Source of the DNA: Shigella phage ShigP1
DNA: 64,000 nucleotides
Direction: 5' to 3' (one strand)
Sequence record: PQ818763
The notes under the pieces were generated by a model. The model had not been told where the DNA came from, did no database searches, and was given only the letters and a program-made list of their open reading frames with translations. The position numbers and the translations under genes were made by a program. Below are positions 12,999 to 18,503 of this stretch, one piece after another; the first letter of the stretch is position 1, and every line of letters begins with the position of its first letter.

Positions 12999-13005
12999 AA
13001 CTAGA

Positions 13006-13031
13006 CCCTGCCTTCGGGCGGGGTTTTTTCG
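13006..13031 (+). terminator. Rho-independent terminator (ccctgcc-UUCG-ggcgggg followed by TTTTTT)
   Basis: Hairpin with a UUCG loop and T-run, read directly downstream of the capsid/Big_2 unit. Confidence 0.7.
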
Positions 13032-13099
13032 TTTTAAGACCTATACAAGCTAGTGTGTAATGTATATTCTTTGTCTACATATAACAAGGAGGACAACCT

Positions 13100-13852
13100 A
13101 TGGCAATGCCAGATGTTCAATACCCCATCAATACCTATGGGTGGCTAAAGAAGGCCGTGGCCCTCTGGGCAGATAGGGACGATGACGAATTTGTTAATCA
13201 AATTCCAAACTTTATTAACTTTGCAGAGAAAGAGATTTATCGTAACTTACGTATTCCTCCTCTGGAAAAAGAAGTGTATTTAGATATTAAAGATGGAGTA
13301 GCTTATATTCCTCCTGATTACCTAGAAGCTCAATGGATGATGAGAGCCAAAGATGGTACAATCTTCCAAGTAACATCTCCTGAAGAGATTAGCTATCGTA
13401 GACAGCATGGAACAATTAACCCATCTCACTGGAATAACCAACCTGTCAACTTTGCTCGTTTCGGTAGTCGTTTCATTTTCTACCCTAGCATCGAAGCAGA
13501 TACTCCGTACTACCCTGATGATGGAAGCCCTTTGATTCCAGCAGAAAACTCAGTGATTCTTAGCTATTATGCAGACCCACCGGAATTCCATGAAGATACA
13601 GATACTAGTACTATTCTTACTATAGCACCAGAACTTCTTCTGTACTTCACCCTACGTCATGCTTGTCTCTTTGTTCAAGATGATAATGGTGTTCAGAAAT
13701 GGTCAGCATTAGGAAAAGCTATCCTTGATGAAATGGTAGAACAGAATAAGAAACAAGAGTACTCAGGTTCACCTATCGCAATTCCGAATAACATGACTCG
13801 ACTTCAGAGCAGCCTGCCTGATATTTATGGTATTCGTACTTCTCGTGTATAA
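13100..13852 (+). CDS. Virion structural protein (adaptor or tail component), function unassigned
   Basis: 250 aa with SD (AAGGAGG); sits between the capsid and tail fibre genes. Confidence 0.4.
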   Translation: MAMPDVQYPINTYGWLKKAVALWADRDDDEFVNQIPNFINFAEKEIYRNLRIPPLEKEVYLDIKDGVAYIPPDYLEAQWMMRAKDGTIFQVTSPEEISYRRQHGTINPSHWNNQPVNFARFGSRFIFYPSIEADTPYYPDDGSPLIPAENSVILSYYADPPEFHEDTDTSTILTIAPELLLYFTLRHACLFVQDDNGVQKWSALGKAILDEMVEQNKKQEYSGSPIAIPNNMTRLQSSLPDIYGIRTSRV

Positions 13853-13861
13853 GGAGATAAT

Positions 13862-16264
13862 ATGATCGTTTATAATAACCAAGCACCTGATGCAGTGAAT
13901 AACGTTGGGCAGTTTGGTGCTACTGAAGGCTCTATCGGGGCTTATAAGCAAGCAGCAGAATATGCAGCTGACTCCAAATATTGGGCACTGTTAGCAGAAT
14001 CTAAGTTTGGTACAATTGATGATTTAATCGCTGAAGTAGAACGTCTATATCAACAGGGTGTTCTGATGAAGCAGGATATTGAAGATCTTAAGCAGGATTT
14101 TAAGGATCAAGATGCTCGTTTGATGACTCTGATTGCCCAAACCAACGCAGCAGTATCGGATGCTAATAATGCCGTTGCTCTCATTAACCAAAAACTTATT
14201 GAAGTCCAGAATCAGCTTGATGTTCTGTTAGGAATGTCTGTTGATGTAACAACTCTCCCTCCGGGAACTCCGGCTACTGGCTCTTTTAATCCTAACACTG
14301 GTGTAATCTCTTTAGGTATTCCAGAAGGTGATCCCGGAAAAGATGGTTCTGTTAAGGATTTGGATACAGCACCTACAGGTGTTCCAGAGCTAGGTGATTT
14401 AGGTTTCTATGTTGACAAAGATGACAATACCGTCCACAAAACTACTCTAGATAACATTGCTAATTTAATCCCATCTGTTCGTTCTGTCTCTATTAACGGC
14501 GGTCCAGCTCTTGATGGAGAGGTTGCTCTAACACTTAACAAAGAGACGGTAGGTTTAGGGAATGTTCTGAACGTTGCTCAGTACAGTCGTCAAGAGATTA
14601 ATGACAAGTTTGATAAAACCACCAAGACATATCAATCTAAAGCAGAAGCTGATGCTGACGCTCAGTATCGCCAAGTTGGTGAGAAGGTCTTAGTTTGGGC
14701 AGCTACTAAGTATGAATTTTATACTGTTGCTGCTAACAAAACATTAACTCCTGTTAAAACTGAAGGTAGAATTCTTACTGTTAATTCCCGTTCTCCAGAC
14801 TCCAGTGGTAATATTGACATTACCATTCCAACAGGAAACCCTTCTCTATATCTTGGTGAGATGGTAATGTTCCCTTATGACCCAACGAAGAATATCTCCT
14901 ATCCGGGCGTTCTTCCAGCCGATGGTCGTCTAGTGTCTAAAGAGTCTGCTTCAGATTTAGGCCCATCCCTTGTCAGTGGACAACTTCCTGTTGTTTCTGA
15001 AACTGAATGGCAAGCAGGGGCTAAACAATACTTCTCTTGGGGTAAATTGGCAGATGGTATTACCGATGCAGATTCTACTAATTTTATCAACATTCGACTT
15101 CCTGATTGGACTGGAGGGGAGGCAATAAGAGCACCAGATTCTGATAAAGACTCTCAGTACAATGGGTCTGTACAGGCTCAGAAACCTTATGTTGTTACTG
15201 TAAATAACCAAGCTCCTGATGAGATTACTGGTAATGTGAACATCTCCAGATCAATTTTAGGTGCTGCCGCTTCTGGTACAAACTCTGATATAACATCCCT
15301 CACGGGACTCACTACAGCACTGTCTGTCACACAAGGAGGCACTGGAGCTAAAGACGCTGCTAGTGCTCGTTCTAATCTAGGTCTNNNNNNNNNNNNNNNN
15401 NNNNNNNNNNNNNNNNNNNNNNNNNNNNNNNNNNNNNNNNNNNNNNNNNNNNNNNNNNNNNNNNNNNNNNNNNNNNNNNNTGCTGCTAGTGCTCGTTCTA
15501 ATCTAGGGTTGGGAAGTGTTTCCACTCTGGATAATGTACCTATTGCTAATGGTGGGACAGGGGCTGGAGATGCTGCTGGTGCAAGGTTCAATATTGGAGC
15601 GCTAAGTAACACCCCAGCAAATTCAGGCGTAGGTGGTACTGGGGATCGTGTCCAACATGCCTCCGGGAACGGCCTGTTTACTTTAGACTTGTTTAACTGC
15701 TACTGGTATATGCAGCCAGAGGATACTAACTTCTGGATTGCCCACGGTGTGTCATATGCAGGGTCTGGTGGCGAAGCCTCACAATACGGTCGCATATCTT
15801 ACGCAATAAAGATTGCAGACGGAACAATAAAATATGTCCATTGTCTTACAAACAAAAACACCACTGTTGATGTAAACGGATTTATCAAAGCGGCATCTCC
15901 GGTAGTTCATATTTACTCCGACGGTCGATATGAGACGAACGAGGAATCTGAGGGGGTTAATGTCATTCGGCAAGGTGTTGGTGAGTACTTGATTACCGGT
16001 TGCCTTGGCTTAAACGCAGATGCAAAATGGGGAGGCATTGACGGCGGCTTTGAAATCCCTACTGACCGCAACAAACAACCTAGGGTTTGGCTGGACTATG
16101 AGATTAAAGAAGATGGTTCTATTTTAGTTAAAACCCATCACAGAACCCATCCAACCTCTCCGGTTTTTGCTAGAAATGAGATAGAAGGTTTTTCTGACGG
16201 TGATCCTATTGATATCCCGAGTGATGCTTTTATTTCAGTTCGTGTTGAAATGCCTTCTGAGTAA
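13862..16264 (+). CDS. Tail fibre protein with phage tail-fibre repeats (GGTGA..AA.AR.NLG); interrupted by an assembly gap
   Basis: 800 aa as read; repeated motifs TQGGTGAKDAASARSNLG and NGGTGAGDAAGARFNIG; N-terminal coiled-coil region. Confidence 0.65.
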   Translation: MIVYNNQAPDAVNNVGQFGATEGSIGAYKQAAEYAADSKYWALLAESKFGTIDDLIAEVERLYQQGVLMKQDIEDLKQDFKDQDARLMTLIAQTNAAVSDANNAVALINQKLIEVQNQLDVLLGMSVDVTTLPPGTPATGSFNPNTGVISLGIPEGDPGKDGSVKDLDTAPTGVPELGDLGFYVDKDDNTVHKTTLDNIANLIPSVRSVSINGGPALDGEVALTLNKETVGLGNVLNVAQYSRQEINDKFDKTTKTYQSKAEADADAQYRQVGEKVLVWAATKYEFYTVAANKTLTPVKTEGRILTVNSRSPDSSGNIDITIPTGNPSLYLGEMVMFPYDPTKNISYPGVLPADGRLVSKESASDLGPSLVSGQLPVVSETEWQAGAKQYFSWGKLADGITDADSTNFINIRLPDWTGGEAIRAPDSDKDSQYNGSVQAQKPYVVTVNNQAPDEITGNVNISRSILGAAASGTNSDITSLTGLTTALSVTQGGTGAKDAASARSNLGXXXXXXXXXXXXXXXXXXXXXXXXXXXXXXXXXAASARSNLGLGSVSTLDNVPIANGGTGAGDAAGARFNIGALSNTPANSGVGGTGDRVQHASGNGLFTLDLFNCYWYMQPEDTNFWIAHGVSYAGSGGEASQYGRISYAIKIADGTIKYVHCLTNKNTTVDVNGFIKAASPVVHIYSDGRYETNEESEGVNVIRQGVGEYLITGCLGLNADAKWGGIDGGFEIPTDRNKQPRVWLDYEIKEDGSILVKTHHRTHPTSPVFARNEIEGFSDGDPIDIPSDAFISVRVEMPSE
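15385..15480. other. Run of 96 N (assembly gap) inside the tail fibre gene, flanked by an identical 24-nt repeat
   Basis: gctgctagtgctcgttctaatctagg occurs on both sides of the N-run; the frame is preserved (96 = 32 codons). Confidence 0.95.
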
Positions 16265-16304: not shown

Positions 16305-18503
16305 ATGTCTAGAGAATTAATGCCCAAATCTGGTATAATGATGCCTCATGTGGTTGTAACCAGAGACGCGGCTGTTGTTGGGGTTTCTACTGTAGATGGA
16401 CAGGCTGGAGCTATTAACCTCACCGGAAAATATTTACAGAAAACCGACGCAGCTGCTACCTATCAAACTAAAACAGAGGGTGCATCTAAAGATTTTGTGC
16501 TGGATTCGATTCAACCTATTATGTCTGGTGCGCTGTTCCGAGAAGACCCTTGGGTTGTTAATGATACCCCATTCCGTTCTACTGGAGCTAATGGTGTAGA
16601 ATCAGTTGATATGATGAAAGTTACTACTGATAACTCAATCAAGATTGGTAGTTATGCCTCTTCAGTTCAAGGTGTAGAGATTCATTCTGCTGGTCGTCTT
16701 CAGGTTGTTGACCAGAATGACTCTGGGGTAGAAACTAAGTATCCAGTTTATTCTAAACGTTACCGTCCTGAGATTGAGGATTTGCCTTTTGCTGCAATTG
16801 GTTCTTATGTTAAAGACTCTAAAGGTCGTACGGTAGGTGTTACTCGTACAGGGATTAACTCTGATATCAAACAGCTCACACAGAAAGTTACTTTCACTCA
16901 ACCAGTAACTGTCCCTGATGCAGTTGGTGATTATGATGCGGTTACTTTGAGACAGCTTCGAAACAGTGGTGGTGGCTCTGGTGGTCCTACGATGAGCGGT
17001 ATCTCTAACTTTGGTATTGGTGATTTCCATTTACGTGACAGTCGAGCTTTTATTCCAGCTTTTGAGGTAACGTCAGACGGTCAGCTTCTTAATCGTTCAG
17101 AGTACCCAGATCTCTGGGCTTATGCACAGCTGTTATCCCCTATCTCAGATTCTGAATGGCTTAGTGATGCCCAAAAACGTGGACAGTACTCTACTGGTGA
17201 TGGTTCTACTACTTTCCGCGTTCCAGACCGCAACGGGGTTCAGGTCGGTTCTATTAGGGAGCTATTTGGTCGCGGTGATGGTGGTACATCATCCAACGAT
17301 GGTGTTATCTATGATTCTGCTGCACCTAATATCAAAGGTAAGGTCGCTGGTGTATCAGCCGGGACTTATGCAGGGATATTCGGGACGTATGTGCAAGATT
17401 CATTCTATACGGATAACAGTTTGTATCCGGCTGGTGGAGGGGACACTATACCTCCGGGGTCCGGTGCAGTTGATGGACGTAATAATACTCTAGTCTTCGA
17501 CGCAAGCCAGTCCAACCCAGTTTATGGTCGTTATAGTATCTCTGACAATATTATACCGAGAAACTTTGTGGGGGTTTGGACTATTCGTGCTCATGGTGGA
17601 TTTGTTGCTGCTAATACTTCTTGGTCTGTTATTAATAGTGACACCACACGACCTTCCAACGGAACGAAAGTTTCTAGTGGGTCAGTTGTCTCTGAGTATA
17701 AAATCGGTTCAGAAGTAGAAGCTTCTACTACTCTCAAAACTGATGCCTACATCAACGGAGCTTACTATGGAATCATTGACGTCTATAATAAAACTAAAGG
17801 AGTTACCAAGCAGTTAGCTTTCGACGATTCTGGTACACTGAATTCTGATAGGTATGTTTCTAGATTTGGCACTTTGATATCTTGGAGTGAAACAGGAGCT
17901 AGGAAAGGAACATTCTCCATGGACAACCAAGGGATAGGGTCTGACTTCTCCTTCAATTCCATACTAAGTGCTTCTCAAACATCTAGTGGGGGATACAAGA
18001 CCACCACTCATGTTGGCATGATTCACAACGACGCCGGAACTTTTGCCGATTCTTGCTGGCACGTTGCAGGTGATGAAGACAACAAATACGGTTGTCGCCT
18101 AACCCTTCGACCAAACAGGAATGAGATTTTCTATTATACTTGGCAACCCAGCTCTACTGGAACATATACCCTTGCCTTGAATCCTGTGTCAGATGAAAGG
18201 TTAAAACATAATATCCAAGATATTTCCCCTGAGAAAGCTATCAAGGCTATCAAAGGTTTGGATTTCAAATCGTTTGTGTACAACAGTGATGAACAAGGAA
18301 GAACTCGTCGCGGTGTTATTGCACAGCAAGCAGAAAAGGTAGAACCTCTTTATGTTAAGACTCGTAGGTTCCACGACAATGATGGTGTAGAGCAAGAACA
18401 GAAAGAGCTAGACTCAGCTCCTATGCTCCTTGATACTATGCAGGTTGTTCAAGACCTTCTGAAGCGTATTGAAGTTCTAGAAGCAAAACTAGCAGAGAGG
18501 TAA
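16305..18503 (+). CDS. Tail fibre/spike with C-terminal intramolecular-chaperone (peptidase S74-like) domain
   Basis: 732 aa; C-terminal SDERLKHNIQDISPEKAIKAIKGLDFKSFVY matches the conserved start of the auto-cleaving chaperone domain of phage tail spikes. Confidence 0.7.
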   Translation: MSRELMPKSGIMMPHVVVTRDAAVVGVSTVDGQAGAINLTGKYLQKTDAAATYQTKTEGASKDFVLDSIQPIMSGALFREDPWVVNDTPFRSTGANGVESVDMMKVTTDNSIKIGSYASSVQGVEIHSAGRLQVVDQNDSGVETKYPVYSKRYRPEIEDLPFAAIGSYVKDSKGRTVGVTRTGINSDIKQLTQKVTFTQPVTVPDAVGDYDAVTLRQLRNSGGGSGGPTMSGISNFGIGDFHLRDSRAFIPAFEVTSDGQLLNRSEYPDLWAYAQLLSPISDSEWLSDAQKRGQYSTGDGSTTFRVPDRNGVQVGSIRELFGRGDGGTSSNDGVIYDSAAPNIKGKVAGVSAGTYAGIFGTYVQDSFYTDNSLYPAGGGDTIPPGSGAVDGRNNTLVFDASQSNPVYGRYSISDNIIPRNFVGVWTIRAHGGFVAANTSWSVINSDTTRPSNGTKVSSGSVVSEYKIGSEVEASTTLKTDAYINGAYYGIIDVYNKTKGVTKQLAFDDSGTLNSDRYVSRFGTLISWSETGARKGTFSMDNQGIGSDFSFNSILSASQTSSGGYKTTTHVGMIHNDAGTFADSCWHVAGDEDNKYGCRLTLRPNRNEIFYYTWQPSSTGTYTLALNPVSDERLKHNIQDISPEKAIKAIKGLDFKSFVYNSDEQGRTRRGVIAQQAEKVEPLYVKTRRFHDNDGVEQEQKELDSAPMLLDTMQVVQDLLKRIEVLEAKLAER

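Follow-up and report, generated by a model that had tools for sequence, protein, structure and literature searches.

The only run of Ns in the window, by which we mean the whole 64-kb stretch of PQ818763 analysed here, is probably a gap left by short-read assembly or scaffolding, its length being arbitrary or an estimate. On comparison with related sequences, and with a probability of about 0.8, it would hide some 252 nt, and the long-tail-fibre protein that it interrupts would comprise 852 residues rather than the 800 of the translation as it stands. The gene family is well known and the N-run in it an artefact; a preliminary description of this DNA was right to treat the run as an assembly gap at a repeat: its 96 Ns lie between exact copies of one sequence, and no fewer than four further public assemblies break down here as well. 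That description had given the flanking sequence as 24 nt from 15357. Its claims that the flanks are identical and encode AASARSNLG are borne out, while the direct repeat in fact measures 26 nt (GCTGCTAGTGCTCGTTCTAATCTAGG) and starts at 15356, its two copies occupying 15356-15381 and 15482-15507. The features around the gap are as follows.

15334-15381, plus strand: direct-repeat copy R1, 48 nt, encoding QGGTGAKDAASARSNLG; R2 shares its final 26 nt exactly
15382-15384, plus strand: TCT directly 3' of R1, which fits the long-form GGTCTAAGC and not the short-form junction GGGTTGGG
15385-15480, no strand: 96-N assembly or scaffolding gap, predicted true content about 252 nt
15481-15507, plus strand: one T, then those 26 nt of repeat copy R2 that are visible; this T fits the AAAAAT found before R2 in long-form relatives
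15550-15597, plus strand: degenerate further copy of the module-start motif, GGTGAGDAAGARFNIG, with a 69% copy at 15572-15597

The two 26-nt copies start 126 nt (42 codons) apart, and both are in frame with the open reading frame at 13862-16264. The repeat greatly exceeds chance expectation: when up to three mismatches are allowed, the 26-mer occurs at these two sites only in the 64 kb. It was matched in none of 100 dinucleotide-preserving shuffles, and the exact 26-mer was absent from IMG/VR, JGI metagenomes and GTDB genomes; a protein-guided scan of IMG/VR returned a best identity of 91%. The bases preceding the 26-mer differ between the copies, R1 having GAC and the R2 of long-form relatives AAAAAT (that is, AAAAAT followed by GCTGCT). 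In BLAST comparisons of the left flank, the alignment reaches base 1523 only in long-form relatives and ends at base 1520 in short forms.

Since 96 is divisible by three, the reading frame remains open across the Ns. As the frame would be kept by chance in one case out of three, this gives no evidence that the length of 96 is real; we have counted it against our reading all the same, since a mask true to length would preserve the frame in the same way.

The interrupted gene and its neighbours

The window holds most of a Kuravirus genome and is approximately 97% identical, genome-wide, to the closest phage records. Kuravirus belongs to the Gordonclarkvirinae and comprises phiEco32/SU10-like podoviruses of E. 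coli. The gene carrying the N-run and the genes on either side of it are listed below.

13100-13852, plus strand: tail adaptor gene (PF24175 SU10_adaptor, E 2.5e-29)
13862-16264, plus strand: long-tail-fibre gene coding for the proximal subunit, orthologous to SU10 gp12 (assigned from the open reading frame, a PDB match, PF25670 and synteny)
16305-18503, plus strand: distal subunit of the long tail fibre, 732 aa, with an intramolecular chaperone at its C-terminus (PF13884 Peptidase_S74, E 2.4e-14; synteny with SU10 gp13)

As it stands, the interrupted reading frame has 800 codons, of which 32 are translated as X. Its residues 1-507 align end to end with residues 1-507 of PDB 7z47_D (1079 bits), the 786-aa 'putative tail fiber' of SU10, and its last 134 residues match the family PF25670 Phage_tail_C_2 over profile positions 1-133 of 133 (E 3.1e-60). 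Annotated Kuravirus 'tail fiber protein' genes are 99.3-99.6% identical to it. No match to the Pfam family Phage_fiber_2 (PF03406) was obtained, whether on the window fragments (E up to 0.1) or on the intact orthologue (E up to 0.01), and none of the repeat families of Pfam matched either of these. The window and SU10 have a gene order in common, running from the adaptor through the proximal fibre, the distal fibre with its S74 intramolecular chaperone and the holin to the endolysin.

In SU10, the long tail fibre has gp12 as its proximal protein, which is docked on the adaptor and has been resolved in its first 90 residues only, leaving the module region described below outside the structure; by cryo-EM the proximal half-fibre of the virion is a trimer, and the fibre, once completed by the distal gp13, measures 700 A and has a single elbow (PMC9509320). 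BASEL describes the protein upstream of the distal subunit as a long proximal fibre, places the receptor-binding domains, RBD1 (Gp12-like) and RBD2 (T5-like), on the distal T-shaped subunit, and finds this layout of proximal and T-shaped distal subunits in both Tequintavirus and Gordonclarkvirinae (PMC11990801). As judged from homology and synteny, the window gene is thus the proximal subunit of the Kuravirus long tail fibre; the distal, receptor-binding one is the product of the gene that follows. For the distal-fibre protein of the window itself, no identical protein is on record.

Since the gene is an orthologue of SU10 gp12, the N-run falls in the structural, virion-proximal half-fibre. 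The preliminary description had suggested that repeat number might affect host range. This link is weak: in a proximal subunit that anchors the fibre to the virion, with the receptor-binding domains assigned to the distal subunit (PMC9509320, PMC11990801), any such effect is speculative.

Modules, relatives and the predicted content of the gap

Orthologues of the gene share a conserved N-terminal part of 491 aa, followed by modules whose array varies. All modules start with GGTG, usually continued by A..A..AR.NLG (consensus GGTGA..A..AR.NLG). Short modules are of 30 aa, while long ones are of 62-68 aa and contain an insert bearing a conserved WG(C). The arrays, with module sizes in residues in brackets, are as follows.

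SU10: [30], protein of 786 aa
Ec3-ASingh and KM01: [30][27], 758 aa
MN03, Bas90 and three ENA sewage scaffolds: [30][64][30][27], 852 aa
PGN6866 and others: [64][30][30], 880 aa
Bas94: [64][30][30][30], with three 30-aa modules in succession, 882 aa
phiEc_1, after trimming of its overlap: [30][64][30][30][30][27], 912 aa
Logan contig L015: three modules of the long kind (64, 66 and a third left uncut), 925 aa

Kuravirus fibres thus range in length from 758 to 925 aa. That module number varies, as previously suggested for repeat copies, is seen even among near-identical relatives, at 758, 852 and 912 aa.

In the lineage of the window, modules 1 and 3 start with near-identical 48-nt stretches of DNA that lie 282 nt apart and are 96% identical in MN03 and 100% identical in Bas90. 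The four motif copies of an intact orthologue are spaced by 90, 192 and 90 nt and are 60-96% alike over 48 nt only; copies other than the near-identical pair are 60-67% alike. Tandem Repeats Finder detected no array at this locus in the intact MN03 gene, and phiEc_1 alone possesses an identical array of 3 x 90 nt. We thus rejected a classical, VNTR-like DNA tandem repeat, for which head-to-tail copies should be alike at a level of about 70% or more: MN03 yields no such array, and only two 48-nt stretches are near-identical. The earlier supposition that the assembler had met a tandem repeat that it could not resolve is not upheld. As read from the intact relatives, the DNA of the locus forms no tandem array: the direct repeat is dispersed, with 234 nt of unique sequence between its copies.

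The near-identical relatives occur in a long form of 2559 nt (852 aa) and a short form of 2277 nt (758 aa), which differ by exactly one 282-nt period. Long-form orthologues (MN03 gp020, YP_010674078; SkaterBoy_Bas90_0008; EC.W2-6; EC.W14-3; EC.W8-1; ev_rybdy8; and the ENA sewage scaffolds MUNK22-1) resemble the window in flanks of 99.3-99.9% nucleotide identity, in the presence of both repeat copies and in their junction bases, but are complete, with 252 nt in place of the 96 N. Short-form orthologues (Ec3-ASingh, KM01, YW01, EcM-vB1, EcK-vB and EcP-vB) likewise have flanks 99.1-99.8% identical to those of the window, but contain a single repeat copy, with exact in-frame loss of one 282-nt period. 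The window itself has two repeat copies and the junction bases of the long form. Its flanks come closest to two ENA sewage scaffolds, L017 and L022, from which they differ at 4 of 2307 comparable nt. Both scaffolds have 252 nt at the site of the gap, differing at 3-4 positions from MN03 and Bas90, and splicing these 252 nt into the window gives an unbroken reading frame of 852 codons.

The spacing of 126 nt has no counterpart in these comparisons. In the 22 phage records with a match over most of the query, the copies are spaced by 0, 282, approximately 293 or 372 nt, and a spacing of 126 nt is likewise absent from 12 intact fibres outside the window lineage (10 metagenome or genome contigs, Bas94 and VTCCBPA_211). 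Nor can 42 codons be composed from any sum of module sizes (30 and 62-68 aa). With no relative spaced in this way and no sum of modules to account for it, the length of the N-run is, on this comparative evidence, not biological. It was correctly noted before that the true length of the fibre cannot be read from the window: the 800-aa translation with its 32 X should not be taken as fibre length, which is likely to be 852 aa and can be restored from relatives.

The exact hidden sequence we infer from the long-form relatives. The 252 nt most likely code for the end of module 1 (13 aa), a single 64-aa module and the beginning of module 3 (7 aa), such that coding through the gap would most likely read ...L / SSIATLNTIPIAN GGTGATTVDAARSNLSIDRVDQASGESRLLSPNKETYLFVDNNGWGCYSTSPGRVGDLALGVER GGTGAKN / AASARSNLG, with slashes at the edges of the gap. 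The hidden DNA would thus most likely consist mainly of unique sequence, with one degenerate 64-aa module and no stack of identical repeats. The preliminary description had expected additional repeats under the Ns and had named unique sequence there as the outcome that would speak against it; the predicted content comes close to the latter.

Other assemblies and other accounts of the gap

Assemblies that break at this locus do so in several ways. Firstly, the ENA scaffold VATA22-2_SAMN26286753_METAG-scaffold_23 (hereafter L031), a 76.5-kb Kuravirus sequence, is interrupted in the orthologous gene, at the same motif, by 100 N; this gap is out of frame, with AGATGCTGCT duplicated on its flanks. 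Unlike the window, L031 has a C-terminal region of the SU10 type, and its left flank is approximately 92% identical. Secondly, FS2B was deposited as two contigs which meet at the repeat locus; one of these, MW929183, reads R-U-R-U-R, that is, three repeat copies at 282-nt spacing with identical U segments between them. Thirdly, the 'complete genome' of ev_rybdy3 begins and ends in the repeats, with the gene split and U absent. Lastly, phiEc_1 was linearised inside its threefold identical 90-nt array and retains an untrimmed, exact overlap of 85 nt. The repeat is thus a recurrent trap in Kuravirus assemblies, one that yields split contigs, genomes linearised within the gene and, possibly, collapsed 758-aa 'short forms'. 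Comparisons of fibre length across public Kuravirus genomes therefore need to be checked at the level of reads.

A layout of repeat, unique sequence and repeat would form a loop in an assembly graph, and would also be a substrate for in-frame deletion or duplication. The assembler of the window probably halted at both copies and bridged them with 96 N. Why it halted we can only infer, and one point must be counted against the repeat as the cause: an exact repeat of 26 nt should not by itself halt a modern assembler working with k above approximately 27, and the cause may instead be a mixed population or low coverage.

A mixed population is one alternative. In it, long and short alleles would coexist, having arisen from recombination or slippage between the two copies R1 and R2, and leaving the assembler with a bubble that it could not resolve and an intermediate estimate of the gap. 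The 96 N do fall between the offset of the short form, which is negative, and that of the long form (252). Long and short genes can also be very close: short forms differ from the long-form Bas90 at 4-6 nt in 2277, the lowest value being that of KM01, and they show two types of junction, GAC and AAT. These few differences and two junction types suggest that the 282-nt indel is recent and probably recurrent, unless some of the short forms are assembly collapses, and such collapses could equally explain the public short forms. The junction bases in the window, moreover, give the long-form path only. We regard this account as unlikely, and note that it would be compatible, as the cause of the gap, with an assembly gap that hides 252 nt.

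A larger claim along the same lines would be that of a real and recurrent length switch, in which recombination or slippage between R1 and R2, at repeats of 26-48 nt, gains or loses a 94-aa [30][64] cassette at an appreciable rate, with Kuravirus populations, the sequenced one among them, mixing 758-aa and 852-aa alleles. This we put forward as a doubtful proposal with a small chance of being right. If it were true, phages would possess alleles differing in their reach through O-antigen or capsule layers. Independently of any switch, the module array of the proximal fibre varies between close relatives, and such variation could alter the reach of the fibre.

The gap may, alternatively, hide a different number of modules, whether through a further [30][64] period, giving R-U-R-U-R, or through added 30-aa modules; taken strictly, this is the repeat number that the preliminary description saw as hidden by the gap. 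The three copies at 282-nt spacing in FS2B contig MW929183 speak for it, as do the trimmed array of phiEc_1, the three consecutive 30-aa modules of Bas94 and the overall spread of Kuravirus fibre lengths. However, the arrangements in FS2B and phiEc_1 lie at the ends of contigs or records and may be artefacts of a loop, while the extra modules of phiEc_1 are downstream of R2, where the window is fully sequenced and has a single copy. Furthermore, all 11 of the 11 intact records and scaffolds that have both copies at an identity of at least 99% contain exactly one 282-nt period. A different module number thus appears quite improbable. As extra copies are nonetheless shown or apparent in FS2B and phiEc_1, 252 nt is to be read as the most probable content of the gap and not as a certain one.

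That the 96 N are true to length, masking real bases (through low coverage, contamination screening or deliberately) in a fibre with a novel 42-aa spacing, is very improbable: while 96 is divisible by three, leaves the frame open and is no conventional placeholder (10, 50 or 100), the spacing is absent from all relatives examined, the 13 aa that end module 1 and the 7 aa that start module 3 would leave 12 aa unexplained, and the analogous gap of L031, being out of frame, is clearly not length-true.

Homology and mosaicism along the fibre

SU10 gp12 (chain D of PDB 7z47, 7z4a, 7z4b and 7z4f) is like the window protein in its N-terminal 507 aa, its PF25670 domain and its first module, GGTGAKDAASARSNLGL, but its array is minimal, with a single 30-aa module, and its pre-terminal region of 265 aa is a different one. 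Residues 247-471 are also homologous to the T5-like L-shaped tail fibre protein (PDB 8hqz chain d; E 3e-48), although that protein belongs to a siphovirus virion and has another N-terminal anchor and another C-terminal region.

Over its full length, the C-terminal stretch of 260 aa shows 70-74% identity to the C-terminal part of prophage tail fibres of approximately 430 aa from Enterobacter, E. coli and Salmonella, and the two of these fibres that were inspected (P0005 and P0007) bear the same motif modules. A large protein search with these 260 aa brought up mainly such prophage fibres of ~430 aa, along with fragments, but not one Kuravirus protein of full length. An AlphaFold2 model of the same region, built from a 32-sequence alignment, had a mean pLDDT of 48, which is too poor for inference.

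Exchange between fibre genes at conserved motifs has reportedly been described by Tetart et al. (1998), Sandmeier (1994) and Haggard-Ljungquist et al. (1992), in T-even gp37/gp38 and in the mosaic fibres of P2, Mu and P1. By analogy, the variation of Kuravirus fibres appears to resemble such exchange. As in those systems, the fibre contains several occurrences of a short, conserved coding motif, which is found at the end-points of indels and at break-points of homology; here, however, the motif is a different one (GGTGA..AR.NLG) and it lies in the proximal subunit rather than in an adhesin. DNA homology with fibre genes of the SU10/phiEco32 type stops at query positions 507-513, or 15591-15597 of the window, which is the end of the third motif copy. 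More generally, the module motif coincides with mosaic junctions, both as end-points of indels and as break-points of homology between lineages.

Record breaks at the fibre repeat

The repeat of the proximal fibre gene, in which the 96-N assembly gap of ShigP1 lies (window 15385-15480), is the break or linearisation point in three public Kuravirus records:

FS2B (MW929182 and MW929183; L025/L026): deposited as two contigs
ev_rybdy3 (PQ819470; L027/L028): both record ends within repeats
phiEc_1 (LC768462; L029/L030): exact 85-nt terminal overlap retained

One FS2B contig contains the path R-U-R-U-R, where R is the 48-nt direct-repeat copy and U the 234-nt inter-repeat segment, while the other begins with approximately 38 nt of unrelated sequence. 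The position of the record ends in ev_rybdy3 leaves its fibre gene split and the inter-repeat segment absent. The terminal overlap of phiEc_1 sits inside an identical 3 x 90-nt array.

A related Kuravirus, represented by the independent metagenome scaffold ENA VATA22-2_SAMN26286753_METAG-scaffold_23 (L031), has a comparable gap. Within the orthologous fibre gene, its 100-N run (L031:3876-3975) falls at the motif where the window gap also lies and is bordered on both sides by a duplicated AGATGCTGCT; as a consequence, the gene caller returns only a 281-aa C-terminal fragment.

Short and long forms of the fibre gene

The short-form fibres of Ec3-ASingh and KM01 (L002 and L004; 758 aa) differ from the long form of Bas90 (L003; 852 aa) by four to six substitutions and an exact 282-nt indel, and two junction types, GAC and AAT, occur among short-form genes. 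Given the small number of substitutions and the two junction types, the short forms either arose by deletions that are recent and recurrent or, in several deposited genomes, are products of assembly collapse.

Mosaicism of the proximal fibre

The third GGTG...AR.N(I/L)G copy (window 15550-15597) is also the site of a mosaic junction: the pre-terminal region comes in two alternative versions, of about 210 and 265 aa. DNA homology to proximal fibre genes of the SU10/phiEco32/IME267/Bas91 type stops at the end of this copy and returns only in the final ~135 codons. The C-terminal 260 aa (window 15482-16261) match, over their full length and with 70-74% identity, the C-terminal parts of ~430-aa "phage tail fiber proteins" encoded by Enterobacter, E. 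coli, and Salmonella prophages, and NSDITSL..GGTG modules were also found in the two prophage sequences inspected (P0005 and P0007). This C-terminal similarity suggests a cassette that has been exchanged horizontally and that may itself contribute to binding.

Further features of the window

ARAGORN found no tRNA or tmRNA genes in window 1-64000. The 732-aa distal fibre protein (16305-18503, +) had no exact match in a large protein-to-contig index; on this basis the receptor-binding subunit of ShigP1 is, judged by its sequence, a new variant. Between the Ig-like protein and adaptor genes, L031 carries an HNH_3 endonuclease gene (L031:1115-1627), whereas at the corresponding place in the window there is just a 101-nt spacer (12999-13099). 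The N-terminal part of the proximal fibre contains a further repeat, which is shared with MN03 and codes for KQDIEDL KQDFKDQ:

window 14069-14108: 21-nt imperfect tandem duplication, AAGCAGGATATTGAAGATC / AAGCAGGATTTTAAGGATC
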